DNA of 64,000 nucleotides, taken from the NCBI RefSeq assembly GCF_036365525.1, contig NW_027141363.1:1-64000 (forward strand), written 5' to 3'. Below, piece by piece: positions 49-28,489 of the stretch; the stretch's first letter is position 1, and each line of letters starts with the position of its first letter. The notes beneath the pieces were generated by a model. It was given only the letters and a program-made list of their open reading frames with translations, did no database searches and was not told where the DNA came from. The position numbers were made by a program, and so were the translations under genes. This stretch comes from Heterodontus francisci (lineage: Eukaryota).

Positions 49-75
49 TCAGTCAAACCTTTTGCTGTAAGACGT
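49..75 (-). CDS. TRBC: TCR beta constant exon 4 (cytoplasmic tail TSYSKRFD*)
   Basis: AG acceptor at 77-76, phase 0, continues exon 3 (..AWKTK); TGA at 51-49. Confidence 0.9.
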   Translation of the reverse strand, partial: TSYSKRFD

Positions 76-1020
76 CTGGTATATGATAAAAAAAAGAGGG
101 CGTTATTATCGTCATGGAATTATGGACTGATACAGAACAGAAGGAGGCCATTCGTCCCGCGTGCCTATACTGGCATTTTGAAAGAGCTGTCCATTTAGTC
201 CCATTTCACAGTTCTTTCCCCTATAGCCCTGAGACTATTCCCTCCCCCACTACCTCAACCCCCTCAAACAAGTATTCATCCAATTCCCTCTTGAAAGTTA
301 CTACTGAATCAGCTTCCACCGCCCTTTCAGCCAGTGCATTCTCAACCACAACAACTCGCTGGCTCAAAATATATTTCTCACCTGCCCCTCTGCTCCCTTG
401 GCTAATCACCTTACAGCTGTGTCCTTGGTTGGGCAATCCTGCTGCCTCTTTGAAGCTGTTACCCCATTCGTTGTCCTATCCAAACCCTTCATCATTGTGC
501 ACACCTCTATTAAATCTCTCCTTAACCTTCCCTGATCCAAGGAGAACAATCCCAACGTCCGTATTCTCCTCACATCACTGAGGTCCCTCAACCCTGATAC
601 CGTTCAAGTAAATCGCCCCTTCACCCTCTCCAATGACTCGACATCAGTGTCCTGACCAGATCATCATGTGCATGAATAATCGAGACGAACCATGCACATG
701 CTCTTTCCTGCTCATGCATTCCTAACCTTGCATATAAAGTCTTGTAAAATCACAATAAGTTCAATTATTTTCCAAGGGAAATTCCAGAACATTGACAATT
801 GTATTCAACTGGATTAAATTGGTTGGTTAGTGTTGTGGGCGCAGGAATGAATGGAAAGTGAATTGGTGTATTCCATCTGCGTGCAACAGGAATGCAAAAC
901 GTGGGCTCGTGAATATCGGATAGTCACTCGTAATTTCAGTCTGGAATTCAGGAGAAACTTCTTTACCCAGTTTCACCATTACAATACCTATGTTAAGAAC
1001 TTCAGTAACTTTAATCTTAC

Positions 1021-1127
1021 CTTAGTTTTCCAAGCAATTGTTGAGATGAAAATTGCATAAAAGATGCTTTTGCAGATGAGGATCAGGTATGTCAGTTTTG
1101 CTGTTGCCATGCTTTGGATTTTCGCCT
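1021..1127 (-). CDS. TRBC: TCR beta constant exon 3 (transmembrane: EAKIQSMATAKLTYLILICKSIFYAIFISTIAWKTK)
   Basis: cag acceptor and gtaag donor; hydrophobic helix with the conserved TM Lys and Tyr residues of TCR beta; phase 1 to 0. Confidence 0.95.
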
Positions 1128-2504
1128 CTGTAAAATAAATGTAACAGAAAATGTTGCAATCTCTGTTCTCTCAAGGCAAGAAATGCTACTGCGTGAAAAT
1201 GTAATGTGTGTCAGTGAAGGAGCCCAATGTAAGGGTCGAGCTGCGAAAGCAGAACTGATCTCCCTTTGACGCAAGGAGCCCTGGGGTATTCCTTACTACA
1301 AATGGAGTTCAGCAATATGGCCGATCTGAATTGGGGCCGCTGTAACTTATGTGTCAGCTATGGCTCACGTATGTATCAGCTCGAGCTGAGTGGGTAACGC
1401 TCTCCTGTCTGAGTCGTACGATTGTGGGTTCAAGACCCAGTCCAAAGACATGAACCCCATAATCCAGACTGACTCTCCCAGTGCCAGTAGACAGCGTGTG
1501 TGCTGCACTGCAACTTTGGAGGAACCTTCTTTGAGATGATGTGTTAAACTAATTTAACCTCTGGGAAGTGGAACTGTCCCTTTTATCTCCACGCCAGATT
1601 CACACTATGAACTCCCAAGGAATTGTACGTTTTAAGACAAGTGTACACAGCTCCCTCCCCTCCCATCCCCAGGCGTCCCCTCTCCCTCATCACAGGGCAA
1701 CATATTTCCCTGAGGTCGTGAACCCAAGAGGACCGTGAGGTTATATCATTCGACTCGGCTGGTCTCGAAATTCCAACGGCCTTTCCCTCCCAGAGGAGTT
1801 TTCTCATAAACTCGTTGTGCATGATAGTATGTATAACTGTAAAACTACAGCTTGGAAATGTTGAAATGAGAATATACATGAAGTGTCTGACACAGTAATA
1901 ATTCCAGAATTATTGGTGAATATTTTTTGAGTCATGGAGTCATTACAGCACAGAAAGAGGTCATTCGGCCCATCGAGTCCATGCAGGATCTCTACAGAGC
2001 AATCCAATCAGTCCAGCTCTCCAATTCCATCTCCATTGCCCTGCAAGTTAATTACCCTCAACAGTACGTCCAGTTTCCTTATGAAATCATTCATTATCTC
2101 CATTTCCACCACCCTCGTAGACAGTGACTTCCAGGTCATTACCACTCGCTGCATAAAACACTTCTGCCTCACATCCCCCCCCGCCCCCCCCCAGTGCATC
2201 TTTTTCCCAAAGCCTGAAAACTGTGACCCCCCCCCCCCCAATCCTTATGCCAGCAACTCATGGGGACAACTTTTCTTTGTCTACCTATTGTCAACCTGTC
2301 ATAATCTTGTACAACTCTGTCAAATAGCCCCTCAATCTCCTGTTCTCCAAGGAGAACAACCCAGGTTCTCCAATGTAACTTTGTAGCTAAAATTCCTCAT
2401 CTCTGGAACCATTGTGGTAAATCTCCTCTGCACCCTCTCAAGGACCTTCACCTCCTTTACAAAGTGTGGAGACCAGATACAGATAGAAGCAGATAGATAT
2501 TCAC

Positions 2505-2525
2505 CTTTACTTATACCGCACATTT
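2505..2525 (-). CDS. TRBC: TCR beta constant exon 2 (hinge EMCGISK, interchain Cys)
   Basis: 21-nt phase 1-1 exon, polypyrimidine-cag acceptor, gtgaat donor, single Cys. Confidence 0.92.
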
Positions 2526-2844
2526 CTGGGAAAAGAAAGAGAAATCAATAAACATTCAGCATCAGAATATTTTATGAAATTACTGTGTAAATGTAGATTA
2601 TCACAATTGAGTCCCGCACTGTAGTCTAATATATTGAGAGTCATTTTAATTGAGTGTTTAACCATATCTTCCCCTTTACACGACAATATTGTTCTATTTC
2701 ATGAATTATTTATTTATTTATTGACTTACTGATACATCTACTTGCTTATTCGTACTTTCATAAGAGCACAGGTGCTATATAAATGCAACTTTTGATTTCT
2801 TTGAAGCTGAAATAAAATGGTATTGGTCTCACTAGTGTGCCTAC

Positions 2845-3195
2845 CTGCTTTGACAGCTAATGTTGAACTGCTTGTTGTCGGCACTGATTCGTTAGTGTAG
2901 AGATCTACTCTGCACTCAACGTTCTTGGACCGAGCCCAATCTAGGGCGTCGAATCTCAGCCGGCTGCTAATGCTGTAAGATGTATTTTCTTTTGATAGGA
3001 TGGCATTGAGATCAGTGTGAATGTTCGTGTCATTGGCATCTTTCTCCTTGCCATCGACAAGCCAGTGGATCTTGATGTTGTCGGGGTAGAAGTCGCTGAC
3101 GAGGCAGACCACAGTGGCTTTTTTCTTTTCTCTAATCTCTTCGGGAGAGGGCTCAAAGACAGTAACTTTGGCAGGCCTAATCGTATCGTTTTCGC
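2845..3195 (-). CDS. TRBC: TCR beta constant exon 1 (C1-set Ig domain)
   Basis: ENDTIRPAKVTVFEPSPEEIREKKKATVVCLVSDFYPDNIKIHW...YSISSRLR...VECRV matches Cbeta hallmarks (FEPS..EI, KATxVCL, FYPD, SSRLR); ttttcctgcag acceptor, gtaggc donor, phase 1-1. Confidence 0.98.
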
Positions 3196-3289
3196 CTGCA
3201 GGAAAAGTAAATGAAGACAATATGGATGAGTATGAAACCCGTCTTGAGAATTTTAAACCACCAAACAATATCAACCTTTCAATTCTAGC

Positions 3290-3341
3290 CAGAGCAGTTA
3301 ATTTTGTGCCAACTCCAGAATAAACCTCTCTGTTTCCCAAA
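3290..3341 (-). pseudogene. TRBJ: J-beta relic GNREVYSGVGTKLTAL (no GT donor, defective RSS)
   Basis: GxGTKLT motif with F replaced by S; G|ctag in place of donor; CAC-starting heptamer but nonamer-like sequence only ~4 bp away. Confidence 0.7.
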
Positions 3342-3554
3342 CACCGATCAGTCATAAAACGTAGAATCAGTTTGCAACCTCGACCTGCTTTTGTACATTT
3401 TAACCCAAAGTGGCAGAAACTGATCATCTGAACCTCTTCGTCATTGAGTGAAGTACAAGTCTGTCTCATTATGAAAGAGTTTCTCCTGTCTATCTGAAAA
3501 GTGTTACCCTGAACTCTGGGCCAGCCTGTTCTCAATAACCAGGCTATCACTCAC

Positions 3555-3600: not shown

Positions 3601-3654
3601 AACATTTCTAAAGCTCTGGTTCGGAAACAACTAGAGTTTTGCAGCCACTTCTGA

Positions 3655-4165: not shown

Positions 4166-5555
4166 GATTCTAATCCTACTCTTGTCTCTTCCCCCAAATG
4201 TAATATTTAATAATTAGTGCTACCGTAAACTCACACATGAAAGGAGGGGACCATTCGGCCTGTTGTGTGAATTCCAGCTCTTTGGTAGAACTAGCCAATT
4301 AATCCTACTCCCCACCCTGTTCTTCTCACATAACCCAGTAAACTATGTACCTTCAAACTCTCTCTATTTCCCTTTTGAAAGCTACTTTTGAAGTGAAGCT
4401 ACTATTGAATCTGCTTTCAGCACCATGTCAGGCATTACATTCCAAATCACAACAAATCGCTGTTTAAACAAAATATTTCCTCATCCCCCCTTTTTTTTTG
4501 CCAACGACCTTAAATCTGTGTCCTTCTGGTTACCGAACCTCCTACCACTGGAAAAAAAGGTTTCTCCCTTTTAACTCTATCGAAAGCCTTCCTGAGTTTC
4601 AGCACCTCGATTAAAATTTTCCCTGTACCTTCTCTGCTCTAAGGAGAACAATCCCAGCTTCTACAATCCCTTCACGATTTCTGAATTTCCTTAACTCTGG
4701 AACCATTCCAGTCAATCTACTCTGCATTCTCTCTGGGGACTTAACCTGTTTTCCAAAGGGTGGCACCAAAATGGAACACAATGCTGCTACTGAGGCCTAA
4801 ACAGTGTTTTATAAATGTTCATGATAACAGCTTTGCTTTTGCCCTCTGTGCCTCTGTTTACAGAGCCAAAAGGATTCAGTGTGCCTTTTGATAGCCTTTT
4901 GAACCTGCCCTGCCAACTTCATAGATTTATGAACATACATCCCCCTGGTTTCTCTGTTCCTGCACCCAATTTAAAATTGTACCGTTTGAGAAACAATGTA
5001 TTGGCTCAAAGAAAATAAGGGGAGTGTGTCCGAGCCAATATTTATCCCTCATTCAACACTTCACATCCACCATTTCCGGTTATCTGGTCATTTAGTGCAA
5101 TGATGCTTGTGGGATCTTGCTGTGCGCATTTTGGCTGAAATCTTTCCCTACATTACAACAGTGACTACACTCCACAGTCAGTTCTTCAACTCTCAAGCTC
5201 TATGAGCGTAATATTGCGAAAGAAATACCTGAACAGGTTTGGGTTTACAGTCAAGACTCTGTGAGAATTCCATGAATATTAAAATGATAAAATCATTAAC
5301 ACAATGACTGATGCCTAATCTTGTTATATTTCTGTTCTGAATATTGAACCATTGGAGATTTCAGGAGACGTCTCTTCACCCAGAGAATAGTGACAATGTG
5401 GAATTCGCTTTTTCTTTTGACTCGGAGGTAAGAGTGTTACCATTGTGTAACTTCACTGAAATACTTAAACCCAAGCAGCATTTTGAGAACTGGTCTCTTT
5501 CTCAACCAGTTGAGCTGCAATTGACAGATGCAGTTTGACAATGGTGCGTCTTTAC

Positions 5556-5607
5556 CTAGAACTAGTTAGTTTGGTACCTTTGCTGCAATACAAGAAAATG
5601 CCTTGCG
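5556..5607 (-). pseudogene. TRBJ: J-beta pseudogene (YCSKGTKLT, +1 nt, VL)
   Basis: GTKLT and GTTCTAG|gtaaag present; FG mutated to CS; 1-nt insertion; RSS degenerate. Confidence 0.7.
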
Positions 5608-6548
5608 CACGTTGCTGTCCAAAATCTACCTGTTTCCAAAGGGGCTGAACACAAGTTTAATTTTGGTCTTAACAATTGTACTTTTATTGGGACTTCCTCC
5701 CTCTGGGATTCGCCACGCTGTTGTTTGTCTTCAATTAATTTTCCCTTTATATTTTGTCTGCTTTTCCTGGTTACTTGCGAATGTGTCTTTATTTTAAGAA
5801 TAAGTTTACTGAAACAACATTGATCTCCCCTTCGCCTTCTCTGCTCTAAGGAGAACAATCCCAGCTTCTCCCATTTCTAAACACAAGTGAAACCTCCCCA
5901 TGTCTGGTACCATTCTAGTAAACATCTTCTGCACCCTCTCTATGGCCTTGACATCCTTCCTAAAGTGTGTTAGCCACGAATTGGTCACAATACTCAAGGC
6001 GAGGCCTACCTGGTGATTAATAACAACAAAAAAATTGCATTTAACTAGCACCGTTGATGCAGTGAAAAATCACGCCATCAGAGCAACTCAGACAGCAACT
6101 TGATACCGAGTTATCGAAGTAGATATTAGGGACAGGTGACCTGTCAAAGAAGTAGGTTCTAAGATGCTTCTTAAAGAAGGAGAGAGGGAGAGAAGCAGAG
6201 GTGTTTAAGGAGGGAATTCCAGGGTTTAGGGCTCAGGCAGCTGAAGGCACAGCCGCCAATGGTGGGTTCGAGGGAGGGGAGGATGCACAAGAGGCCAGAA
6301 TTGGAGGAGCACAGAGAAATCATCATGGTTTCTTTTAGGTCCAGAGGAAGTTACAGAAATAAGGAGCCACCGCCTCACTGACAGAACTATGCACGAATCC
6401 CGCGTAAATGTCCCCTACACGTGAAATGAATCCTCGTGTTCATCTGCTAAAATCCCTCCCCACAATTAGAGAACTGCATCCGTATAACAACAGCAGACCT
6501 TGGTCCATCCATCATTAACTGAGACCTCTTGTACTGTCAGCTACTCAC

Positions 6549-6599
6549 CCGAAACGCTTAGCTTCGTGCCCCCTCCAGAATACTGTTCATATCCTGAAG
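6549..6599 (-). CDS. TRBJ: J-beta SGYEQYSGGGTKLSVS (Ser replaces J-Phe)
   Basis: 12-RSS caccatg-12-acgaaaact (6600-6627), gtgagt donor, open frame. Confidence 0.88.
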
Positions 6600-7616
6600 C
6601 ACCATGCTGCAACCCTACACGAAAACTAACAAGAGTGTCTCTCCCCTCCAGATGGATGGAGTTGGTGCTGGGGATTTTACATCGAAATTCATTGTAATTG
6701 CAACAATCTAACCAAAGTTCTATATAAGTTTCATGTAACTTCTCTGCTTTGGAATGCTAGCTGATCCCCTGCAAAGGAAGCCCTGTGCTTTGTTTGCTGT
6801 TATTATTGGATATTAGTCAATATTAAAGATGCAGACAAGTACGATGTCGCACTGCATCAGAGGATACCAATTAGAATTAAGCCTTCAGGTTGCTCAATCT
6901 TCTGCGAACACCCAGAGCTTCTTGCTGTTTCACCATAACCCTACATTTGTTAGCCTTCAAGTATGCATCAAATGCATTGTTTGAGCTATTTTCAGGCAGT
7001 GCATTCCACATCACAACAATTGGCTGTGTAAAAGCAAATACTCATCTCCCTCTTTGTTTCTTTTGCCAATCACAAATCTGTTCTCTTTGCTTACCGACCC
7101 TTCTCCCAGCAGAAATGAGTTATTCTTATTTACTCTATTACAAAACATATGATTTTGGACATTTTGAATATGATATTAATTCCCACCTTAACCTTCTCTT
7201 CTCTGAGGAGAACAACCCCAGTTTCTCCAGTATCTCCACACAATTGAAGTCATTCATCCCTGGTACCACACTGGCAAATCTTCTTTAACCTTCTCTGCTC
7301 CAAGGAGAACAATATTCAGCTTTTCCAGTCTCTCTACAAAGCTGAAATCCTTTCTCCCTGGTATCAATCCTCCCACCACCACTTAATCTTCTCTGCTTTA
7401 TCCTACTTGTTTTCAGAATACATCTTGCTGAAATATTGCGAAATAAATATAATAATTATTACGATAATTTGGTAATAAGTGGGGCAACGAGGGAAATCTG
7501 GGTAGCAGGGTCAGACATACAGCACTGTGCAGTTATGTACTGGAGTGCAATGCCATGGGTAAATATACAACTAACTTAATTGACGCACTCAAAACGTTAC
7601 ATTTTTTAAAACTTAC

Positions 7617-7668
7617 CCAACACTGTTAATTTGGAACCGGGGCCAAAATGAAAGTTAGTAGTTACATC
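7617..7668 (-). CDS. TRBJ: J-beta DVTTNFHFGPGSKLTVL
   Basis: cacaatg-12-cagaaaact (7669-7696), gtaagt donor, FGxG. Confidence 0.93.
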
Positions 7669-8274
7669 CACAATGCTACATTCCTATCAGAAAACTAGGA
7701 TTGCCTAACAGTTCCCGTAGACTGCCAATGCAGTAGCTTGTTCCCTATATTTATTTAGTATGCCAAGAAAGCAAGTAGTGAAATTGTTAAACTGTTTGGA
7801 CATTGCCACGTACCTCTCACTTTGAATTCTGATTTGAAATAGTGTTTCATCATAAATGTAAGTCAATTCCTTATGCACTCAATTTAGTTATTTTCTTGAA
7901 GGAAGACTAGGTGAGTTTGCCATTTAGTATCTAATCTTCTACAACCTTGACTAGATCTAGTCTTTGTTTATTACATTCAATCATTTTTGTTGGGTAAGTG
8001 TGTTAAAGGTTATGGGACCAAAGACGGTAGCTGGAGCTAAGATAAAACTCAGCCATGATTTAAGTGAATGGTGTAAGAGGCTCAAGGGATGAATGGTCCT
8101 TTGTGGCTTCTTGTGTTTGATTGGAGTCCTTTCAAAATCGTTGACTCGGGTTTGCATCTGTTATGAACTCGACAGTGGCCCTTCCTGAGTTCAGCCTTTA
8201 AGATAATCACTACTAGTTGAGCCTTGCCTCTCTGCTTTTACATTGGTGAAGATTAATCGCTCGGTTTTACATAC

Positions 8275-8330
8275 CCAGAACTGTTAATCTTGTCCCATCG
8301 CCAAAGCGGAGAGGTGTGCTGTTTCCAGAA
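8275..8330 (-). CDS. TRBJ: J-beta SGNSTPLRFGDGTRLTVL
   Basis: cacagtg-12-attaaaact (8331-8358), gtatgt donor, FGxG. Confidence 0.95.
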
Positions 8331-8887
8331 CACAGTGTTACAAAGCAGTATTAAAACTGCTGGGGACCAATGATTACACGATACTTCATCGAATGCTCTG
8401 ACACCTTTGAACAATTATAATTCAACCAATAGCAATGTGTAGATTTGTCTGTCCTTTTCTCCACCATTCCATTTTAAAGCAGAGAAATTATGGTAAAATT
8501 TGCTTAGACGTTCTTGGAGCTCTGTGCACAGTTCTGGTCTCCATATCCCTCGGTTAGACCACACTTGGATCACTGTGCACAGTTCTCGTCTTCATACATA
8601 TTTACCTATCAGGAAAGACTGAATAGCCATTATGATAGATAAGAGAAGGCTTAGAGGTGACCTGAAAGAGGCGTCTAAGATTATGAAAGGGTTGGGGGGT
8701 TCCAGAGGGTAGACACAGAGAAGTCTGGTAACGTTGTCTTTGAAAAATTGTGCATCTTGGGATACAAATTTACTCAAGTTTTCCAGTATGTGGCCAGGTT
8801 TGTGAGTTTTGGCAGAATTACGAAGCAATGAATGAACACTTAGAGCGAATAAAATTTGAATATTGAGATCTATTCTTGTTTACCTAC

Positions 8888-8936
8888 CTAGAACGTAATC
8901 CCAGAGCCAAAGTAAGAGATCGAGGTCCCAGCTGAA
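8888..8936 (-). pseudogene. TRBJ: J-beta pseudogene SAGTSISYFGSG, then deletion and stop
   Basis: Intact RSS cacaatg-12-tgtaaaact (8937-8964) and donor, but a ~7-nt deletion after FGSG gives TAG in the FGxG frame. Confidence 0.88.
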
Positions 8937-10134
8937 CACAATGTCACAGGCCAGTTGTAAAACTACCAGGGCCCTCAGTTAGGCCTGAGCTGGAGTCTCG
9001 TGCCCAATTCAGGGCACCACACTTTTGGAAGGATGTCAAGGTCTTGGAGAGCGTGCAGAGAGAGATTTACTGGAATGGTCCTAGAAATGAGGGACTCAGT
9101 TATGTGGACAGACTGGAGAAGGTGGGATTGTTCTCCCAGAGAAGGTGAAGGAGAGATTTAATAGTTGATTTCAAAGCCATGAAGGGCTTTGTTAGAATCA
9201 GTAGGGGGAGACTGATTCCACTGGCCGGAGATTTCACAACCAGAGAACATAGATTTAAGGCAATTGGCAAAAGATCCAGATGTTTATTGAGGGGGCCATT
9301 TCTTTACACAACGACTTGTTGTGATATGGAATGCATTACCTGAAAGTGTGATAGATACTGATTGCATATTGAACTTCAAAAAAGAATTGGATCATAGTTC
9401 AAAAAGGCGAAAATTGCAGGGCTGTATAGAAAGAAAAGGGGTGAGGGAGGCGAATTGGAGAACATTTCCCAACAGCCGACTCTAGTAAGATGGGCAGAGT
9501 GGTATTCTTGTGTCCAACATGCATATTTGTCTAATTATTTCCATCAACTGTTTTTTTTAGAAGTCTGTCCCATTATCAACAGTGAGCATTCATTCCAGAA
9601 GATCACTGCTTCAGGACGTTAATCATAACAAGCTGAACAAACTCTGTTTAAGAATGGGATTGAATTTTATACGGATGAAGGCAAAGCACAATCTTCTAAA
9701 ACAAAATCGAAGTGGTCATTTTTATTAATTAGTGTGAGGTTAACAATTTTATGCGGCAACAGCTCAGAATTGTTGACTTAATTTTGGCTGCAAGCCCATA
9801 AAGTATGGATTGACAAAAGTATTAGGGTCATGTCTTTACAGCCATGTCTATCCTGGATTCTACTCCACCCAATAACCCTCCTGAGAAAAGAGCCTGAGGA
9901 ATGTCTCCCAATTCCAAAACAATTCAGCCAATCACAAGAAGGCATTTCCACCATAACATTCTACGTTAGACAACCCAATGCACTTCTCTGTCGGTTTAAT
10001 GTCACACAGCATTTTCTATATTTTTGAAAGGATAATAAGATTGTCGATGTGCTGGTTGATAATTCGAAAATTGGACAGTAATGGGAAACTGCAGAATATG
10101 ATGATAGACTATCCCTTCTTCTTTCTTTTCTTTC

Positions 10135-10635
10135 TTTTGGGCCTACTTATCTCGAGAGACAATGGATACGCGCCTGGAGGTGGTCAGTGGTTTGTGAAGC
10201 AGCACCTGGAGTGGCTATAAAGGCCAATTCTGGAGTGACAGGCTCTTCCACAGGTGCTGCAGAGAAATTTGTTTGTCGGGGCTGTTGCACAGTTGGCTCT
10301 CCCCTTGCGCCTCTGTCTTTTTTCCTGCCAACTACTAAGTCTCTTCGACTCGCCACAATTTAGCCGTGTCTTTATGGCTGCCCGCCAGCTCTGGCGAACG
10401 CTGGCAACTGACTCCCACGACTTGTGATCAATGTCACACGATTTCATGTCGCGTTTGCAGACGTCATTATAGCGGAGACATGGACAGCCAGTGGGTCTGA
10501 TACCAGTGGCGAGCTCGCTGTACAATGTGTCTTTGGGGATCCTGCAATCTTCCATGCGGCTCACATGGCCAAGCCATCTCAAGCGCCGCTGACTCAGTAG
10601 TGTGTATAAGCTGGGAGTGTTGGCCGCTTCAAGGA
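10135..10635 (-). mobile_element. RTE-clade LINE 3' fragment
   Basis: ORF 10184-10582 (RWLGHVSRMED..RIPK..LY..CxxC..HxxxxC) resembles the RTE ORF C-terminus; simple-repeat tail; short copy of the same 3' end at ~58775-58830. Confidence 0.8.
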
Positions 10636-10671
10636 CTAGTTAGACAAACAAAGTCTTTAACATTTACATAC

Positions 10672-18060: not shown

Positions 18061-18108
18061 CGAAAACTGTTAACTTGGTCCCGTCGCCGAAGTAAGCTAT
18101 GTTTCCTG
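18061..18108 (-). CDS. TRBJ: J-beta GNIAYFGDGTKLTVF
   Basis: cacagtg-12-tcatgaact (18109-18136), gtaagg donor. Confidence 0.94.
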
Positions 18109-18467
18109 CACAGTGGCCTAAACCCAGTCATGAACTGGCCCGGGAACTGTTACCCTTGCAGCTGAACGGGTCTGTGCCGGGCGGTTTACCGTGGAACACA
18201 TCACCAAGCGGGCGTCCCGTTGGACTGGTCTTTGCGAACCAGAAGGAAGGGCCAGTGTCGTCCCGGGGAGAGAAACACCGCGCCAAAGTGACAAACGGAT
18301 GCTTGTGGCAGGAGGGAAATTAGGGGCAATTCTCGGCGGTCATGAGACAGATCTAACCGGCTGCCTAACTCGTTAAACTGTCCGGGGAGGAGGGGGGGGG
18401 GCAGTAAGCTTGGAATGCACACAGCTAGACATGAAGGTAGAGAGAACAAAAGACCCCTTTATCTTAC

Positions 18468-18518
18468 CTAACACCGTCAGTTTGGTGCCGGTCCCGAAAT
18501 TGAGTGGTGCTGTTGTCG
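18468..18518 (-). CDS. TRBJ: J-beta TTAPLNFGTGTKLTVL (first J of cluster 2)
   Basis: cacatca-12-acacgaacc (18519-18546), gtaaga donor. Confidence 0.93.
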
Positions 18519-19038
18519 CACATCAGCAAATCATGTTACACGAACCCGGTCGAAAACAGTTTGCTAAAAGTGACCTGCTCAGCATTTAGGAAGCACTGGT
18601 CAAGACAATCAGGACACACAAAGCAGCTTACAGCCAATGAAGCAGTTTGTTTAGGAAGTGGTCACCACAGGGAGACAGAGCAACTGATATTGGACCAAGG
18701 AAGTCCCATCAAACAGCAGTGAGATTAATGAGCAGATCATTGTGATGTTGGTTGAGCATCAATATTGGTCCCAAGACACCGGGGTGGTGTTTCAGGGGTA
18801 GAAGAGTAACCAGTTTTCACACAAATAACACAGTTATTCTCTTTTCCAGAGGAATGCTCTAGGTTATAAAGCTGGACCATTCTGAGGCATCTACAAGATT
18901 GAAAGGGCCCAGCTCCCGCCATAATCCAGAGGAGATGTTTATTCGTTTACTCTGTTGCCACTGCTCTTCTGCTGATCTTCCTCGAGGTGTGTAGAGCGAG
19001 GTTTTTGTACGGAGGCTGCATTGGATTCTATCACAGTG

Positions 19039-19051
19039 TCCCCCCTGTCCC
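19039..19051 (-). other. TRBD: D-beta segment 2, GGGACAGGGGGGA
   Basis: 5' 12-RSS cacggtg-12-acaaaaaag (19052-19079) and 3' 23-RSS cactgtg-23-acaaaaacc (19038-19000); canonical GGGACAGGGGG core, open in all three frames. Confidence 0.97.
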
Positions 19052-20678
19052 CACGGTGATAGACACTCATACAAAAAAGAACGCGAATTTTGCAAGGCCC
19101 TGCTTCTTCAAAGACTCCCGAGGGCTTCACTTGGTGAAGTCAGTTTCGATTGAGCTGCTGAAAGTTTTTTAGTCCTTTGGACCATAATTAAAGGCCGTTC
19201 ATTCCGTCTCAAAACTGTTAGCAGGAACAGGAGGTGGCCATTCCGCCCCTTGTCAGCCTGCTACACAGGTGCAGCAGGAGGCCATTCAGCCCCTCTAGAC
19301 CTTGTTATACAGGAAGAAGAGGAATCCCATTCAGCCCCTCTTGAGCTGCTTACACAGGAACAGGCCCATTCATCCACTCAAGCCTCCTTCCTTTCCTCTA
19401 CTTCCTTCCTTCCTTCCTTCCCTTCCGTCCTTCCGTCCTTCCTCCCTTCCTTCCTTTCATGCTTTTTTTTCTTGCTTGCTTTCTCTCTTGCTTTCTCTCT
19501 CTCCATTCCATCTCTCTGTTGCACCCCTTCTCCCCTTCCCCTTCCCCCATCACTTACCCGCTTCATAACCCACATTCTACCTTCTACAACGTGCAGGACC
19601 TCAGGACATACCGGCCACGGGACCTCAAACAGAAGCCACTTACTCTAGACAGTAAATCGTTCACACTGCTATCTCTTATCTTATCACTCAGAGAGACCCA
19701 TATCTGCCAAACTAGTGCAAGTTTCCCAGGTGTCGTGTTGATGTGTGCGGTGCTGTTATCATTCCTGCAGATCTCATTGCACACCAACCCCCATCGCCAT
19801 GCACCTGACATGAGGGAGAAAGGAATAGAAGTTTAGATGGTGTAGTGGGGGTGGGGAGAGGAGGCTCGTGTTCAGTATCACCACTGGCTTCATGACACAT
19901 TTCTCGGGGGATTCGAGCAATGTTTGAAAATGAATAATCCGCCCTCTGAGAAAATGGGTCAAAAAAGGAACTCCTTCCTTAACAACACTGTGGAAATACC
20001 TAAAACACATTGAACGCAGGCGTGACGCCAGCAAAATGATAATGTTGCTGGGCCTGTAATCCAGCAGCCCGGGCTAGTGTTCTGGTTGTGTGAATTCAAA
20101 TGGCCGCAGATGGGATTTAAATTGAACCGATTTATAAAAATCTGTCAGGGTGCCATGAAACTGTCGTTGATTGTCGTAAAAACCCATCTACCATCCTATA
20201 TGGGACTCCAAACCTGCAGCATGCAGTTGACTGTTAACTGCCCTCTGAAATTGCAAAGCACTCAGTTCAAGGGCCATTAGGGATGGGCAACAAATGCTGG
20301 CCTTTCCAGCGGTGCAAACATCCCATGACAAAAATAAAATCATGGCCTAGCAAACCACTCAGAAGTCAATTGTGGGTGGGCAATAAATGCATCCCAGCAC
20401 GAATTAACAATGACTTTTCCTGTTCATTTTTGTCTGTATTTTGCTCCCAATCTGTGTCTCTCTGTATATGGTTGCCTCCCTAGCCTTCTTCCACTCTCCA
20501 CCTCGCCTTTCCTCTATGTTTAATTGTTTTAACCTTTGCTGCTTTACTGCAATGCTTACTGTTTAATTTTCCAAATTTCATGTTCTCTCCCCTTTCTTCA
20601 AACGGAAGGGAGCAAACTGCCCAACAGTTTCAGTGCTGATTGAGCCCACTGATATATTTCGACCAATATTCTACTCAC

Positions 20679-20736
20679 CCAGGAACGTTAACTTCGTGGC
20701 ATCTACAAAATATGATGGATGGTTACTTCCTGCTCC
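20679..20736 (-). pseudogene. TRBJ: J-beta pseudogene GAGSNHPSYFVDATKLTFL
   Basis: Paralog of J at 15020; both glycines lost (FVDA) and nonamer deleted. Confidence 0.87.
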
Positions 20737-21257
20737 CACATCACCATGTCACAACATTCCTCAATAGCGTCCTGCTAATTTGCATTGTCCCGATCATTAA
20801 TATTTGATATTGGCCTTTGAGTGTCATTGGCCAAAGTAAACTCATAAACTAACCGGGGTTGTTGGCAATTAACACTGGAAACATTCCCAATACTGGCTCT
20901 GCATCAATGTATGGACCAGTTAGTCAGATGTCCACAGATACAGCTCTGACAATACTGGACAATTTTACTTGGAGTTCGTCATAATTATTAAGTAAGTTGT
21001 GCATGCAGGATGGGGACCGATTAGTTCGGTTAGCGAGATGGCTCACGTGTGATTCAGAGCAAGGTCAACAGCAGGGGTTCGGCTATCGTCTTGGTCTGAC
21101 TAAAGTAACGGGAAACCGCCTTACCTACGTTCTTCCCTTGTCATTCTCATCTCTCCTGCTGGAGTAAAGGAGCAGAGATCCATGGACGGAACATCTGCAT
21201 GACACAGGCAATAGGAACCCAGCCATCCTGGCTTAATCGAATAAACATCTAACACAC

Positions 21258-21314
21258 CCAAAACTGTTAGAGTCGAGCCTTCCCCAAAATGTAGAGGCTG
21301 GGCGTTCCCGCCTA
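21258..21314 (-). CDS. TRBJ: J-beta GGNAQPLHFGEGSTLTVL
   Basis: cactata-12-accaaaaca (21315-21342), gtgtgt donor. Confidence 0.9.
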
Positions 21315-21473
21315 CACTATACTAAACAACAGTACCAAAACACAGCGTTGGGTAGACAGGTACAGCCTCAAGCAAGTAATGTATCGATATCTAAACACAT
21401 GGATGGATGCACAGATACATTGTGGATCGATCGAACAATGGATATTTGCACATTTATGTAGATGGGATATTGC

Positions 21474-21515
21474 CTAAATCTTAGATCCAGTTCCGAAGTA
21501 TTAATATCAGCAGAG
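21474..21515 (-). pseudogene. TRBJ: J-beta pseudogene (YFGTGSKI*)
   Basis: Paralog of J at 15840; internal deletion, stop, donor changed to GC, heptamer damaged. Confidence 0.82.
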
Positions 21516-21809
21516 CAAAAGCTAACTCCCTGAATAAAACCTCACACCTCTCTGTGGTTCTATCCCAAGAGAGCCTTTCACAACAATGGAGAACATACAA
21601 GTACAGGAACATTGGCTGACAGCAGCACGGGAACAAAAATAGACTGTTCAGCCCTTCCAGTGGGTTCCGACATGCAAAAGGAACATGTATGTTAGTATCG
21701 TCAAGGTGGATGGAAAGAAAGGTGCAGAGCTGAGTGGTTACGTGCACAGCTCTCAATGGTGGATCGATGAAAATCGGACAGTCCAGAATTTCAGGATCAC
21801 AAAGATCTC

Positions 21810-21990
21810 GGAGAGTTGTAGAGGCTGGAGGAGGTTACAGAGATAGGGAGTGTTGTAGAGGCTGGAGGAGGTTACAGAAATAGGGAGGGTGGTAGGGGGC
21901 TGGAGGTGGTTACAGACATAGAGAGGGTGGTAGGGGGCTGGATGAGGTTACAGGGATAGGGAGGGTTGTATGGGGCTGGAGGAGGTTGAG
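21810..21990. repeat. G-rich ~38-bp minisatellite; related array at ~11620-11770
   Basis: Repeated ggctggaggaggttacagagatagggag. Confidence 0.8.
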
Positions 21991-23736
21991 GCCATTTTTT
22001 TTAGCTCATTCATGGGATGTGGGCGTCACTGACAAGGCCAGCATTTGTTACCCATCCCTAGTTGCCCTTGACAACTGCGTGGCTATTTCAGAAAGCAGTT
22101 ACGAGTAAAGCAAAATAGTTAATAGGTAGAATGAAGTAGAAGTCGTGTTTCAGCTATACAAAGCCCTGGTTACACCACATCTGGAGTTCCTCTGAGCATT
22201 TATGGGCACCAGACATTAGGAAGGATATGCTGGTCTTGGGGGAAGTGTAGTGTAGATTAAACAGACTGATTCTTGGACGCCAAGGGTTAAATTGCAAGGA
22301 AAGATTCGACATTTCCTATTCTTTGGAAAAGAGAAGGTTAAAGGGTGGTTTGAGCAAAGTTTTCAAGATATTAAGGGGAATGCATGATGTAGATGGAGAG
22401 AAACGATCTCCATTGGTTGTGCAGTCTAGATCTCCGGGACAGAGTTTAAGAATTAGAGCCAGAACTTTTCAGGCATGAAATTAGAAAACATCTTTTCACA
22501 TAAAGGATGGTAGAAGTTTGGAACTCTCTTCTGCTGGAACAATTGTCAATTTTAAATCTCAAATTGATAGATTGTTGTTAACCACAGCTATTAAGGGATT
22601 ATGGGGCAATGGGGGTATATAGAGTTAGGTCACTGATCAGTCATGATCGCATTGATTGGCAGAACAGACTCGAGGGGCCGAATGGACTACTCCTGCTCCT
22701 GTGTACCGATGATCCTATGTTCCTGTAACTTCTATTTAAACATAGAGTCAGCATTCTGCTTCAGTTAGAGTGTCCCAAATTCTGACAACTCTGAGTGAAA
22801 AGGAATCTAGTAATTGTCCTTGTAGATCTTTTGTCAATGATTTTAAATATCTGACCTTTGTTTATTGACCCATCCACCAGTAGAAATAATTTCCCCTTCA
22901 AGTAATTGTCCAGTCCCCCTTTTGAAAGTTAGTATTGAGTCTGTTTGCACCACCCTTTCAGGCAGCGCATTCCAGATAACAACACACCGCATAATTGTTT
23001 TATTCTTCATATCACCCCTGTTTATTTTGTCAATTACCTTAACTCTGTGCCCTTTGTTTACCAACGCTTCGAGCATTGGAAATTGTTTCTGAGCATGTAC
23101 TGTGTCCAAAGCCTTCATTGCTTTGGACACCTCTGTCAAATCCCCCCTTAACTTTCTCTGCTCTAGTCTCTAGACGCAACTGAAGACCCTCATCGCTGGA
23201 ACCAGTCGAATAAATCATTCGTGCAACCACTCTAAGGCCTTGACATCCATCCTAACATGTGACACCCACAATTCTCCAGCTGGGACCTAACCAGCGATTC
23301 ATCGAGGTTCAGCTTAACTCCCTTGCTCAACTCCTCGTCAATCCTTCTTTAACGAAGGTACTTTCCAGCTTCCTCAACTCTTTATTCTAAATTTCTTGAT
23401 TGTCACGTATTTGTCCCTGTACCTCACTCCTATCATCAACTCGCATTACGCCGATTTAGCTACATTAGGGACTGGATTAGGCCATTCAACCTCTGATATC
23501 CAAGGTACTTATCACATGTCGATTTCCACATGCACAATACGTCTCTAGTTTGTTTCAGGAAATATTCCATATGGGGCTCGGAAGTAATGCATGGAGTCTG
23601 AACACAAATACAAGGTGTATGTTTCTATATAAGGTCCTCAGATCCACAACTAGGTTTGAATAATTTTAAATTTCAACTAGACATCCCTCTGATTCCACTT
23701 TCCTTTAAAGAGCTAATTCGATTCTATCTCACTTAC

Positions 23737-23788
23737 CTAAAACCATGAGTTTTGAATTACCCCCAAAAGTATAACCATCGTTGCCTGA
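23737..23788 (-). pseudogene. TRBJ: J-beta SGNDGYTFGGNSKLMVL, probably non-rearranging
   Basis: Open frame and gtaagt donor, but heptamer cgcaatg (CAC broken) and FGGN motif; paralog of J at 14536. Confidence 0.8.
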
Positions 23789-24528
23789 CGCAATGTTACA
23801 CTTTTGTATCAGAACTCGCGTTTCTTCAACTCGATACACAATAGTTAATGAACATAGTTGGAACATTTTGCCTTGTGTTATATTCATTATTCCACCCTAT
23901 TGCTCTTTATCTTATATTCTGTTACAATTGATCTCCTTGTCTCTGTCTCTTTTTCACTGTTTTAAATCTAATTTCCCATCTCCCTCCAGTTTTGTCTGCT
24001 GTTTGCTCTCCATCTGGAGTTAAGAAGAATGGGAGATGATCTTCTGGGAAATTCTAAGATTCTGAGGGCGCTTGACAGGGTAAAGGCTGAGAGAATGTTC
24101 CCATGTAGAATTAAAGGGCACAGTTTCAGAATGAGGGGTCGCTCATTTAGGACGGAGTGGAGAAGGAATGTCTTCCATCAGGGAGTCGTGAATCTTTGGA
24201 ATTCCCTCCTCCAGAGCGCTGTGGAGACTGAGCCCGTGAATGCATTCAAACTGAGATAGAGAGCGGAGCCAAGGATTATGGAGAACAGGTAGGAAAGAGG
24301 GATCGAGGCCAACATCAGATCAGCCATGATCTCTGGTTGCAAATTCCTCTCTCACCAGCCCTCCTCCAATCTCCTACATTTAGCTATTTACATTCTTGCT
24401 TCTTCAATGCAATGCTTACTCTTTTGCCTGTTTTCACATTCTCTCGCCTTTCTTTAAATTGAAGAGAGTAAACTAGTCGACGTTTTCAATGCTAGTAAGA
24501 GACGTATTTTGACTAACATCTCACTTAC

Positions 24529-24586
24529 CCTGGACAGTTAATTTAGTGCCATCTCCAAAATACATAGGTTGAATACTCCCTGCTCC
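24529..24586 (-). CDS. TRBJ: J-beta GAGSIQPMYFGDGTKLTVQ
   Basis: cacatca-12-acaaaaaca (24587-24614), gtaagt donor. Confidence 0.93.
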
Positions 24587-24930
24587 CACATCATCACCTC
24601 ACATCACAAAAACATTCCCCAACTCTCTTCTGGAAGAAAAGAAACTCACTGGGCCATTCCTTAATATTTGATAGTGACCTCTGGTTAACGCAAGCTAACT
24701 GTAAGTTAATGTAAACTCGTGGACTAACCAGGCAGTTTGCAGTTATAACTCTCAGAATTCCCAAGACTGCCTGCCCCGTCTAAATGTGGACCTTTTAGTC
24801 AGTTATCCACCGTGGCAGTCCTGACAATAGGAGATTTTCTCTAAGTCCCTCCCAATTATTCATTCAATCCTTCTTGCAAGATGTTTACAGGTGACCCTTG
24901 CTTCATTGAAAACAAAGAAACTGAACTCAC

Positions 24931-24987
24931 CCAAAATCGTCAACGTGGACCCGTCCCCAAAATGTAGCAGGTTGGTATACCCGCCCG
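24931..24987 (-). CDS. TRBJ: J-beta GGYTNLLHFGDGSTLTIL
   Basis: cactgaa-12-accaaaata (24988-25015), gtgagt donor. Confidence 0.9.
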
Positions 24988-25198
24988 CACTGAACTAAAC
25001 AACAATACCAAAATACAACGATGGGTAGACAGATCTATGGACAGACAAATAGATAGATAGATGGACAAACAGACAGACAGATGGATCCACAGACCAACAA
25101 ATAGATAGGTACATTGATAGATAAAGAAATAGAAAGACTTACAGATGAAAAGAGATGTTTACATATATAAATATCTACATGTGCAAACATAATCTTAC

Positions 25199-25248
25199 CT
25201 AAAACAGTGAGTTTCGTCCCAGCTCCGAAATAATAAATCTCACCAGAG
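25199..25248 (-). CDS. TRBJ: J-beta SGEIYYFGAGTKLTVL
   Basis: cacaatg-12-attaaaaca (25249-25276), gtaaga donor. Confidence 0.95.
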
Positions 25249-26756
25249 CACAATGATAAACTCATGTATTAAAACATCACCTGTCTTTGAGTCCTTTTCC
25301 AAAGGAGCCCCTCATAATAAGGGAGAACCGACAAGTATAAGGAACTTTTGTCCAAAGGAACATAGCAACTGGGGAACAGGAGTAGACCATTCAGCCCTTC
25401 GTGCTTATTCCGACATTTAATTAGATTATTAATCATTTGTACCTTAACGCCTTCGACCTGCCTTCTTGGTTCCATAACCTTTAGCATCTTTGCCGATCAA
25501 AAAATAATCAACCACACATTTGAAATTTTCAATTGACCCCCTCAGCTTTCTGTGGGAGAGATTTCTGGATTCCACGGGGCATTTTGTAAACAAGTCCTTC
25601 TTGACATCATTCCTGAATGGTCTAGCTATCAGTTTAAGGTTTTGCTCTCTTGTTCTGGACCCATCACACCAGAGGAAATATCAGATCCTATCATTATCTT
25701 AAACACATCAATTGGATCACTCCTGAATCTCCAATTCTCAATTTACTGCAACCCTACTTTAAACAACACATCGTCAGAAATTAAATTCTTTTAATACCGG
25801 TATTATCCTGGTGAATGAGGAAAGGTCATGAGGCCCTTGACACCTCATTGTCCACTGGATATGGACAGCTCACCAGTTCGATTAGTAACTTGAAAATAGT
25901 GTGTCTCAAAATGGTTTCATCCATTGCTGCTCGAGGCCAAGAGGGAATATATAGAATTACATAGAATTTACAACACACAAACAGGCCATTCAGCCCATCT
26001 GCTCCATTCCAGTGTTTGCACTCCATTGAGACTCCTCTCATCCCCTTCATTTAATCCATTTTTTTTTATCCAATCTACTTTTTTAAACCCACTCCTTGTG
26101 GTAGTGAGTTCCACATTCGCACCACTGTCTGGGTAAAGAAATTTCTCCTGAATTCCCCATTGAATTTATTACTGACTATCTGACATTTATGATCCCCCCG
26201 TTCTGGTCTCCCCACAAGTGGAAAAAACTTCCGTGTGTCTACCCTATCGAACCCGCTTTCAAAATCGTGCAGACCTCGACCAGGTCACCCCTCAAACTTC
26301 ACTGCTCTCGAGAAAGGAGCCCCAGTCTGTCCGACATTCCCCAATAGTTACAACTTCCCAGTTTGGGCAGCACAGTTGTTAATCTGTTCTGATTTACCTT
26401 ATCCAGAGCCTCTACATCATTTATTTTATAATATGCAGACCAGAACTGCATACTGAACGATGCAATCTGACATTTTTCGTTCTATGCCTGTGTCCTCTTG
26501 TTCTTCTCTCACAAGCGCAATCATTCTATTTGTATCTACATTGCTGTTCGTTCTGTTTCTTTTAGAGACCCTCCCTTATGTATCCACTCAAACCCCTTCC
26601 CTACAGTGAAACGAATTCGACAGTTGCAGGTCTCCCTTCGTAACCTGAAGAGACGATACAAATTCACCAAATTCTTATGGTTTCACTCCCTCGACCACCT
26701 CACGTGAATTCCCAAATTGAATCAACTTTTCCAGTATTAGGAATGCATTCACTCAC

Positions 26757-26806
26757 CTAAAACCACCAGTTTGGTCCCATCTCCGAAATATGCTTCGCTA
26801 TAGGAG
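26757..26806 (-). CDS. TRBJ: J-beta SYSEAYFGDGTKLVVL
   Basis: cacactg-12-cacaaaatc (26807-26834), gtgagt donor. Confidence 0.95.
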
Positions 26807-27469
26807 CACACTGGTATGGGGCTGTCACAAAATCCCCCTCAATGCCTCTAGATTGTTAAGTCTGTTCCATTGAAATTTATATCATGTCAATGACCGGTGA
26901 AGGCCGTAGAAACATGGGGACAGAAGGTGGCCGTTCAGCCCTTGGAGCCTGTTCCACCATTCAGTTAGATCAGGGTTGATCTGAATCTTCACTCCATCAT
27001 CCTGTCTTTGTTCTGTAACCCTCAATACTTCTGTTTTACACAGCTCTATCAATCTTGGATATGAATTTAACAATTGACCCCCAGTCTCAACAGATTGTTT
27101 TGGGAAGATGAAGAGGGGGAGAGAGTTCCTGATTTCCACTACCCTTTGTGTGAAGAAGTGCTTCCTGATATCATCCCCGAAAGGTGATAATTTAAACTGT
27201 TCTGGGAACCTTCCCCCCCCCCACCCCCACCCTCACCAACCTGAGGAAGCAGTTTCTCTCTCTATCTATCCAACACCTCAAACCCCTCCATTATATCAGC
27301 CCTTAATGTTCGATATTCGAGGGACTGTCAGCTTAGTCTGAGTAACCAGTCCTCATGATATAACCCCTTTATGTATCTAATATCTGAACATTACTCCTGG
27401 TGATTTTTTAACCGCATGTAAACATAGATTCTGATGGATAGGAGGAACAGAAATACATAGTCGCCTTAC

Positions 27470-27517
27470 CCAACACTGTCAACTTGGTCCCATCGCCGAA
27501 GTCAGCTATGTCTGTTG
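27470..27517 (-). CDS. TRBJ: J-beta TDIADFGDGTKLTVL
   Basis: cacgatg-12-tcatgaaca (27518-27545), gtaagg donor. Confidence 0.92.
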
Positions 27518-27759
27518 CACGATGCTCTAAACTCAGTCATGAACAGACCCGGGAGATGTTCCCCTTGTAACTGAACGAGACAGGATGGGGTGGTTTAGAG
27601 GCCAGGGTCATATTGGACTGGTCTTTGCAAACCAGAAAGAAGGGCGAGTGCCATCAGCCTGACTTTTTAAACCGCCCGCGGAGGGTTGGGGGGAATAAGC
27701 TTGGAATGCAAACAGCTGGACATGAAGGGAGTGGGGGAAAAAACGCCCCATTATCTTAC

Positions 27760-27810
27760 CTAACACCGTCAGTTTGGTACCGGTCCCGAAGTTGAGTGGT
27801 GTGTTGGTAG
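27760..27810 (-). CDS. TRBJ: J-beta TNTPLNFGTGTKLTVL (first J of cluster 1)
   Basis: cacgtca-12-acatcaacc (27811-27838), gtaaga donor. Confidence 0.92.
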
Positions 27811-28335
27811 CACGTCAGCAGATCACGTTACATCAACCCGGTCAGAAACAGATTGCTAAAAGTGACCTGCTCAGCATTTAGGAAGCACTGGTCAAGACAA
27901 TCAGGACACACAAAGCAGCTTACAGCCAATGAAGCAGTTTGTTTAGGAAGTGGTCACCACAGGGAGACGCAGCAACTGATATTGTACCAAGGAAGTCCCA
28001 TCAAACAGCAGTGAGATTAATGAGCAGATTATTCTTTGTGATGTTGGTTGAGGGATCAATATTGGTCCCTGGACACCAGGGTGGGGTTTAAGGGTTAAAG
28101 AGTAACCAGTTTCCACACAAATGACACACAGTTATTCTCTTTTCCAGAGGAACATTCTAGGTTATAAAGCTGGACCATTCTGAGACAACTTTATAATGAA
28201 AAGGGCCCAGTTCCCGTTATAATCCAGGGTCATGTTGACTCGTTTACTCTGTTGTCACTGCTCTTCTGCTCATCCTCCACCAGGTGTGCAGAGTGAGGTT
28301 TTTGTACGGAGGTTGCATTGGATTTTATCACCGTG

Positions 28336-28348
28336 TCCCTGCTGTCCC
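28336..28348 (-). other. TRBD: D-beta segment 1, GGGACAGCAGGGA
   Basis: 5' 12-RSS cacagtg-12-acaaaaaag (28349-28376) and 3' 23-RSS cacggtg-23-acaaaaacc (28335-28297); open in all three frames. Confidence 0.97.
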
Positions 28349-28489
28349 CACAGTGATAGACACTCATACAAAAAAGAGGAAAGCAAAACGTACAAGTCCC
28401 CGCCGCTTAAACGGCTCCCGAGGGTTTCACCTGGTGACGGCAGTTGAGACTCAGGTGCTGAACTTTCGTTAGACATTTGGAGCACAATT

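Follow-up and report, generated by a model that had tools for sequence, protein, structure and literature searches.

Does the TRB (T-cell receptor beta) locus of the horn shark Heterodontus francisci serve two D-J blocks with a single C gene and, if so, was a second C lost or never copied? In the analyzed stretch of 64,000 nucleotides (the window), the locus lies on the minus strand with the layout V(7+)-D1-J(10)-D2-J(18)-C. It is a genuine TRB translocon in which two D-J blocks are common to one C. The order V-D1-J(10)-D2-J-C had been proposed in a sequence-only reading and was borne out by the RSS scan, the J search and the mapping of the C exons. The V segments carry a 23-RSS, the D segments a 5′ 12-RSS and a 3′ 23-RSS, and the J segments a 12-RSS together with the FGXG motif. 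The C gene consists of four exons and is orthologous to TCR beta C; all of its protein matches (14 out of 14) were shark TCR-beta-like C proteins. Seven TRBV exons with a 23-RSS were found at 37753-60367 (heptamers at 37791, 40694, 45844, 47649, 52012, 53832 and 60058), and an inverted TRBV with a 23-RSS is located on the plus strand at 63053-63397 (heptamer at 63359). All other features given below are encoded on the minus strand.

The two D segments were previously described as bona fide and about 9.3 kb apart, and each was indeed found to possess a complete 5′ 12-RSS and 3′ 23-RSS. TRBD1 with its signals spans 28297-28376 (D at 28348-28336) and TRBD2 spans 19000-19079 (D at 19051-19039), resulting in a spacing of 9,297 bp. 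Both are 13 nt long, differ in two bases, with AGCAGG in the core of D1 and AGGGGG in that of D2, and share GGGACA, the start of the G-rich D core; the conserved TRBD sequence is quoted in PMC11754216. A strict scan identified two 12RSS-D-23RSS pairs in the window, compared to none in 20 mononucleotide shuffles. About 750 to 950 bp upstream of D1 and D2 are conserved to 75-84%. This D-upstream region (28377-29305, aligned to 19080-19807) was duplicated together with the D and may include a germline promoter; a 44-bp repeat lies within it, as does an N run.

Cluster 2 comprises 18 J-like segments, of which 16 have a J reading frame and a GT splice donor, with an open FGXG frame in 12 of these 16. 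The remaining two are degenerate remnants at 5552-5617 (nhmmer E 1e-4) and 3289-3343 (SGVGTKLTAL, no splice donor; nhmmer E 2e-4), so that the earlier count of 18 or more was generous. Since 17 cluster-2 Js had served as seeds of the J profile, these match it by construction. The proximal segments J2.1 to J2.9 (13069-18518) were located by J profile and RSS scans: J2.1 (18518-18468), J2.2 (18108-18061), J2.3 (17480-17431), J2.4 (15889-15840), J2.5 (15684-15628; FGER), J2.6 (15077-15020), J2.7 (14587-14536), J2.8 (13473-13424; FGSV) and J2.9 (13121-13069). The distal segments J2.10 to J2.16 (6549-12011), which have no cluster-1 paralogue, are J2.10 (12011-11959), J2.11 (11450-11398), J2.12 (10727-10672), J2.13 (8936-8884; in-frame stop), J2.14 (8330-8275), J2.15 (7668-7617) and J2.16 (6599-6549; SGGG).

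In cluster 1, ten J-like segments were identified, the last one ending at 20679. Number and end point agree with the first description, whereas only seven of the ten appear intact, retaining an open FGXG frame and a GT donor. J1.1 to J1.7 (23737-27810) are collinear with J2.1 to J2.7 at 67-91% identity: J1.1 (27810-27760), J1.2 (27517-27470), J1.3 (26806-26757), J1.4 (25248-25199), J1.5 (24987-24931), J1.6 (24586-24529) and J1.7 (23788-23737; FGGN, heptamer lacking the invariant CAC). They are followed by a second J4-J6 block (20679-21525), which is 77-80% identical to J2.4 to J2.6 including the flanks and consists of the pseudogene J1.8 (approximately 21525-21475, with stops), J1.9 (21314-21258) and J1.10 (20736-20679; FVDA, nonamer lost).

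The single C gene comprises exon 1, encoding the Ig C1 domain (2845-3195; 116 aa, 100% identical to P0001, i.e., AAA61563.1, an H. francisci TCR beta cDNA protein), exon 2 with the connecting peptide EMCGISK (2505-2525; AG/GT boundaries, matching P0001), the transmembrane exon 3 (1021-1127; 35 of 36 aa identical to P0001) and the coding part of exon 4, TSYSKRFD plus stop (49-75; matching P0001). The sequence-only reading had seen no C exon between the clusters and had proposed a search with the C exons; four methods detected neither a C gene nor a remnant there. With tblastn, C exon 1 matched only itself (next best E 1.4), and by blastn and nhmmer each of the four C exons found only itself. 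A profile of 35 C-domain sequences recovered exons 1 and 3 only (next E 0.93), while the lowest E reached when the 35 sequences were compared with the D2-D1 interval by tblastn was 0.13. A C-region tree (33 rows) left the horn-shark clade unresolved at its base and is silent on C loss.

Comparison of the two clusters revealed nine collinear blocks in the same orientation with a mean identity of about 73% (range 64-84%). As in mammalian cassettes, the units are thus collinear and paralogous, whereas a C of its own does not follow each D-J unit. Judged by their sequence, the two clusters are tandem paralogues, with a divergence far beyond haplotype difference. This bears on the reading that haplotypes or sister TRB copies were merged into a chimera by the assembly. 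In this species TRB C exists in several nearly identical copies, making an assembly collapse plausible, and no single contig among those listed spans the whole stretch. Against this stand the low identity of the clusters, the absence of N runs from C to D1 (the nearest starts at 28763, upstream of D1) and the bridging of the boundary between the clusters by read-derived contigs, although all four sequencing runs represent a single sample, perhaps the very one from which the assembly was made. Contigs of the DNA runs X1 and X3 align across 19507-20251 with 21 differences in 745 letters. Furthermore, the RefSeq models P0003, P0005 and P0006, on three other contigs, contain cluster-1-type sequence, and P0006 independently holds cluster-2-type sequence as well, in the same order as in the window. 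These gene models suggest that this cluster-1 DNA is also present in sister TRB copies. A chimera is accordingly considered highly improbable, and the earlier expectation that the clusters are not misassembled haplotypes held.

The boundary itself was located at position 19807, where J-array DNA equivalent to 12269 meets D-upstream DNA equivalent to 29305; the two homologies abut with an overlap of 1 nt. For 69% of the D2-D1 interval, a paralogue exists in cluster 2 or in the DNA upstream of D1, and about half of the largest unmatched stretch (1.44 kb) matches repeats elsewhere in the window. Paralogues of J2.10 to J2.16 and C exons were absent from cluster 1 by blastn, tblastn, nhmmer and profile search, and what the J2.10-J2.16 region shares with the D2-D1 interval is limited to repeat-like matches and short J motifs. 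Two origins had been offered before, namely that only D-J was duplicated or that an intervening C was lost. The junction favors the former, though not decisively. We infer a single-step origin: a tandem duplication would have started about 950 bp upstream of a single ancestral D and stopped within the J array, past J9 and before J10, with about 9 kb still to go to C, for which reason C would never have been copied. J blocks were also gained and lost locally. J1.8 to J1.10 are closer to J2.4 to J2.6 (77-80%) than J1.4 to J1.6 are (70-72%), J8 and J9 are missing from cluster 1, and deletions of J blocks have evidently happened at this locus.

These losses also lend weight to the second origin, in which a whole D-J-C cassette was duplicated and the upstream copy then lost its distal Js, C and intergenic DNA in a single deletion that reached to about 750 bp upstream of D2. 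Vertebrates usually duplicate whole cassettes, and an identical junction would result if the whole of D-J-C had been duplicated and at least 12 kb then deleted. It requires two events instead of one, however, J10 to J16 and all C exons are traceless in cluster 1, and no repeat is common to both breakpoints. We regard this origin as unlikely but not negligible; the present-day function would be the same. Given the overlap of 1 nt, an unequal crossover at the junction by way of shared repeats is not supported. The 12.2-kb region has a single match in D1-upstream DNA, at about 30.0 kb rather than at 29.3 kb, so that homologous exchange fits neither origin model.

It is probable that the locus represents a tandem duplication of D and proximal Js without C, functioning like a mammalian two-cassette TRB locus with long J-to-C introns. 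Such introns are common. At the DNA level, D1 would join any J, D2 would join only cluster-2 Js, by deletion, the 12/23 rule would permit a D1-D2 fusion, and the joining of an upstream V to D2-J2 could overwrite a V-D1-J1 allele. That such a replacement can take place with no second C had been put forward for this layout, which overstates the case: secondary V-to-D2J2 joining is itself also mammalian. From the geometry of the mouse and human loci, this join deletes C1 anyway, and the single C therefore changes nothing. At the RNA level, the locus would behave like one with a long J array, the rearranged J donor being spliced to the single C exon over 17-25 kb in the case of cluster 1. The measured distance from cluster-1 Js to C is 17.5-24.6 kb, matching the span of 17-25 kb estimated at first.

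Splicing of J2.1 to C is the sole J-to-C splice seen directly: a loose end at 18467 in X5, which together with X6 is presumed to be an RNA run, equals the first bases of C exon 1. Such a spliced J-C transcript could also come from an allele that is not rearranged. Cluster-1 J-to-C splices and D-J joints were absent among the loose ends and joints listed, and the 15 listed joints all fall in repeats or paralogous flanks and were rejected as artefacts. X5 contigs cover the cluster-1 introns at 21133-21839, 22925-23459 and 23511-23991; there is no silent control stretch and DNA may be present, so this was not counted as expression. X6 covers unique bins little or not at all and was given no weight.

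Protein sequences provide a further line of evidence. The CDR3 of P0001 ends in DS-N-SEAYF and continues into this C, which fits the D1 frame DSR joined to J1.3 (17 of 20 aa to cluster 1; J3 of cluster 2 encodes REAYF). P0036 (QDR-NAGEAYF) fits the D2 frame DRG with J2.3 (15 of 16 aa) and then continues into the same beginning of C. The D signatures comprise two residues in each of these two proteins. A D1-J1 and D2-J2 pairing thus fits both informative proteins (n = 2), which are not assignable to this copy. Compared with the window, the V of P0001 is 93% identical (aa) and one transmembrane residue differs, for which reason it may derive from a sister TRB copy. A search of short H. francisci cDNA proteins gave one match among 52 candidates, and cluster look-ups returned singletons for nine of nine proteins. 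Hence the claim that cluster-1 Js are spliced to this C finds a fit in P0001, possibly from a sister copy, and no splice among the rows listed; we infer that such splicing takes place in this copy.

Alternatively, cluster 1 could be a decaying, little-used duplicate, with productive chains almost wholly of cluster-2 J type and D1 at most serving as a second D. Three of its ten Js are defective, several of its RSSs are far from consensus (four mismatches each in the J1.1 heptamer and the J1.2 nonamer), and the only splice seen directly belongs to cluster 2. Yet the RSSs of the cluster-2 paralogues are equally non-consensus, and J2.1, with three heptamer mismatches, is nevertheless transcribed and spliced to C. 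The seven intact Js have kept frame and donor despite flanks diverged by about 27%, the D1 RSSs are intact, and P0001 carries the J1.3-type SEAYF. Decay is considered improbable. Tentatively, the C-less D-J duplication may have been fixed before the whole TRB unit multiplied, giving several V-D1-J-D2-J-C copies with both blocks in use. If so, the species would be a natural experiment separating two things that mammalian cassettes bundle together. This would suggest that second-chance rearrangement and D-D fusion, not a second C, are what a second D-J unit is retained for, in an animal that would also have to enforce exclusion across several TRB loci.

The locus resembles the human, mouse, sheep and opossum TRB in having two ordered D-J units downstream of V and Ds with 12/23 RSSs, and differs in the missing intervening C and in far more Js. 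Cross-cluster D1-J2 joins (PMC2806336), D1-D2 fusions (PMC10513440) and secondary V-to-D2J2 joins (PMC10772921) have been described for the mammalian TRB. In sheep, 7 of 72 clones showed a J spliced past its own C to a downstream C (PMC2806336); for horn-shark cluster 1, splicing to a downstream C is the sole route.

The bamboo shark Chiloscyllium punctatum shares the 13-nt D, the J array, the V-D-J-C unit and V genes that flip orientation upstream of D, a few genes away from it. Each of its two Ds belongs to a D-J(7)-C unit of its own, the two units being arranged head to head, and, unlike in the horn shark, a D-J-D-J-C order is not part of the locus described (PMC10322711). Among the 22 D and 24 C rows for ten species in supplement 16 of that study, there is no same-strand D pair within tens of kb without a C in between; the Ds of trout and lungfish, from D and C rows alone, are 0.8-2.2 Mb apart (PMC10322711).

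Partial D-J-C duplications and the splicing of long J arrays to a C far away are also known from zebrafish and duck (D-J-C-J-C) and catfish (one D, 29-31 J, two C; PMC5278385, PMC8656973). In these loci J-C or C was duplicated and D was not, the opposite of the horn-shark case. The skink Tiliqua rugosa likewise combines several Ds with one C (3 D, 6 J; PMC11754216) and could be a direct precedent if its Ds and Js interleave. The opossum TRD also has two Ds and a single C (2 D, 6 J), but was rejected as a precedent since its two Ds precede J1 and J2 and are not interleaved with Js (PMC2275272, supplement 3). In the V-D-D-J-C mini-clusters of shark Ig type, each cluster has one V and one J (PMC6795676), whereas in the horn-shark TRB a single C serves seven same-strand Vs and 28 J-like segments. 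In the mostly open literature searched, exclusive of figures and key horn-shark papers, no published D-J-D-J-C TRB locus and no genomic description of the Heterodontus TRB was found.

The two base differences between the Ds and the distinguishable paralogous Js mean that repertoire sequencing can test the use of the second unit and editing without a second C. In its layout the horn shark is unlike the bamboo shark, the only shark for which coordinates were compared, and its preserved breakpoint shows how such loci grow. Beside D-J-C × n, D-J-C-J-C and D-J-C-C, it supplies the missing combination, D-J duplicated without C. The layout is unusual and mechanistically ordinary: no new recombination or splicing mechanism is implied, V-to-D2J2 replacement being already known in mammals.

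The minus strand of the window carries a T-cell receptor beta locus. Exon 1 of the single C (3195-2845) encodes 116 aa with 100% identity to the H. francisci TCR beta cDNA protein P0001 (AAA61563.1) and 99-100% identity to five H. francisci RefSeq models, whereas identity to other sharks reaches 54-61% at most. Exons 2 (2525-2505), 3 (1127-1021) and 4 (75-49) were mapped on the window sequence, on the same strand. The RSS scan identified two back-to-back 12/23 pairs, each flanking a 13-nt D on the minus strand: D1 at 28348-28336 and D2 at 19051-19039. No further pair was found in the window by the strict 12/23-pair scan, which returned none in 20 shuffles.

A nucleotide profile of J segments, for which 17 of the locus's own Js served as seed, returned 36 rows. 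Between D1 and C, 28 matches were located on the minus strand with E < 0.1 (in gene direction, 10 before D2 and 18 after it); the remaining eight (E 0.5-4.9) were discarded. Of the 10 cluster-1 Js, 7 combine a GT donor and a CAC heptamer with an open FGXG frame. For cluster 2, the sequence-only reading had counted 18 or more Js. The number holds for J-like matches, but a J-type GT donor is present in only 16, of which 12 show an open FGXG frame; the other two are remnants. C exon 1 is preceded, at a distance of just about 95 bp, by a J remnant that lacks a splice donor (3343-3289). RSSs that deviate strongly from the consensus are frequent in both clusters. In J1.2, the region of the non-consensus heptamer (27470-27530) reads HRATD, as does the Mustelus TRB model P0026 (HRATDVNYF), which suggests that J1.2, and not J2.2, has kept the ancestral sequence.

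Seven V exons with a 23-RSS (37.8-60.4 kb, minus strand) share the orientation of D-J-C, and an inverted V at 63.1-63.4 kb (63053-63397, plus strand) has a relative in the V at 60.1-60.4 kb. On the opposite strand, the heptamer of this gene (within 63338-63397) also gives a 12-RSS score; chance is the probable cause, because the bases that resemble a nonamer are those coding for the V's YFC motif. A tandem unit, about 6.2 kb long and containing two V genes, is found at 43143-57537 in two full copies and a partial third (91-94% identity). Minisatellite arrays occur at 30095-30880 (33 bp) and 57522-58505 (38 bp). A 44-bp GC-rich repeat lies upstream of both Ds (28454-28757 and 19192-19364), with more copies at D1; it is a promoter candidate, or else no more than a minisatellite derived from a SINE.

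No C besides this gene was detected in the window using tblastn with exon 1, blastn and nhmmer with all four C exons, or a six-frame search with a profile built from 35 C sequences; in the D2-D1 interval, tblastn with these 35 gave neither a C nor a remnant. The best non-self matches had E values of 0.13-1.4 (protein) and 0.08 (short nucleotide), and the stretch from C to D1 is without any N. The proposed V-D1-J-D2-J-C layout, with one C and none between the clusters, is confirmed.

Splicing of J2.1 to C exon 1 was observed in X5, a presumed RNA run, in which two contigs follow the window up to the J2.1 donor, after which come the initial 24 bases of exon 1. The CDR3 of P0001 (DS-N-SEAYF) matches the D1 frame DSR and J1.3, followed by the window's C, and that of the unnamed cDNA-type protein P0036 (QDR-NAGEAYF) matches the D2 frame DRG and J2.3, followed by the same C start. 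With D signatures of two residues each, these proteins are consistent, though indirectly, with D1-J1.3-C and D2-J2.3-C use. P0001 may derive from a sister copy, since its V and one of its TM residues are not those of the window. Among the listed matches of run contigs to the window, no cluster-1 splice or D-J joint was found. The predicted J-to-C introns are 17.5-24.6 kb for cluster 1 versus 3.4-15.3 kb for cluster 2. Locus order together with the 12/23 rule predicts that D1 joins any J and D2 cluster-2 Js only, and that D1-D2 fusion is possible. A V-D1-J1 join could be overwritten by an upstream V joining D2-J2; this earlier argument holds by geometry, but it does not depend on there being a single C.

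Self-comparison revealed cluster 1 as a collinear paralogue of cluster 2, offset by about 9.3 kb, with 64-84% identity in nine blocks (length-weighted mean 73%). Identity was 80-91% for J1.1-J1.3 and 67-72% for J1.4-J1.7 against their cluster-2 counterparts, and J1.8-J1.10 represent a second J4-J6 block (77-80%). Within the D2-D1 interval, 69% is explained by paralogy; five stretches of at least 150 bp have no match, and these are each at most 1.44 kb long and partly repeat-like. In gene direction, the end of cluster 1 is homologous to 12920-12269; at 19807, with one base common to both homologies, the match changes to the D1-upstream DNA at 29305-28997. This structure is as expected for tandem duplication of a D with its proximal Js, in which the copied segment would have begun about 950 bp upstream of D and stopped between J9 and J10, leaving J10-J16 and C single. 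Duplication of a full cassette followed by deletion of at least 12 kb predicts an identical junction, and J-block identities are uneven, which shows that the locus has undergone deletions. On parsimony, partial duplication was judged clearly the more probable, with full duplication and deletion a serious but minor contender.

The concern that the clusters are misassembled haplotypes is countered by their divergence, which is too great. Furthermore, Logan contigs of the DNA runs X1 and X3 (1,265 nt) aligned to 19507-20251, where 21 of 745 letters differ, and thus bridge the 19807 junction in sequence non-identical to the window's. All four runs stem from one sample, possibly the assembly's own source, so the junction is confirmed in reads and not in a second animal. 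No single piece among the matches listed spans the whole stretch.

The window's C is carried by five RefSeq models (P0002-P0006) on contigs of 1.11, 1.57, 1.67 and 1.99 Mb (two models on the last). Two variable residues occur in four combinations among models and window, more than two alleles of one locus could give, and several near-identical copies of the TRB C seem to be present in H. francisci. Work of the 1990s reportedly described the TCR beta genes of the horn shark as multicopy. All five tested pieces of P0003 and both of P0005 are closer to cluster 1 than to cluster 2, and P0006 has two cluster-1 pieces followed by four cluster-2 pieces. Since the D-J duplication is about 27% diverged and the C copies about 1%, the duplication evidently predates the spread of the TRB copies, as judged from gene models, in which the D2 region of these copies is not visible. 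This multi-locus TRB is maybe of more interest than the D-J duplication. In several other sharks, two divergent TRBC proteins are found on differently sized contigs (P0007/P0026, P0012/P0018, P0014/P0030, P0017/P0021, P0031/P0032), and one C lineage forms a supported clade of nine rows (97/92) in a C-region tree of 33 rows.

No description of a D-J-D-J-C layout was found in the literature covered, which was text without figures and included little of shark immunogenetics, and the accessible parts of PMC6795676 and PMC12227049 contain no horn-shark TRB map. According to the accessible text of the sources cited here, whole D-J-C units are repeated in mammals, opossum, axolotl and newt (PMC10464911, PMC2275272, PMC12529555, PMC12698447), J-C is repeated without D in duck and zebrafish, and catfish combines a single D with a long J array and two Cs (PMC5278385). 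For the skink, 3 D, 6 J and a single C are reported, their order not being given in the text (PMC11754216). In opossum TRD, both Ds lie ahead of the Js. The bamboo shark has two V-D-J(7)-C units head-to-head (PMC10322711); as a similar switch in V orientation leads there into the second D-J-C unit, the inverted V may point to a mirror unit outside the window. In sheep, a J can be spliced past its own C (PMC2806336); D1-D2 fusion is described for human, rat and mouse (PMC10513440), and secondary V-to-D2J2 joins for mouse (PMC10772921). The window locus is a TRB outside the tandem D-J-C cassette type, with recombination that would be cassette-like.
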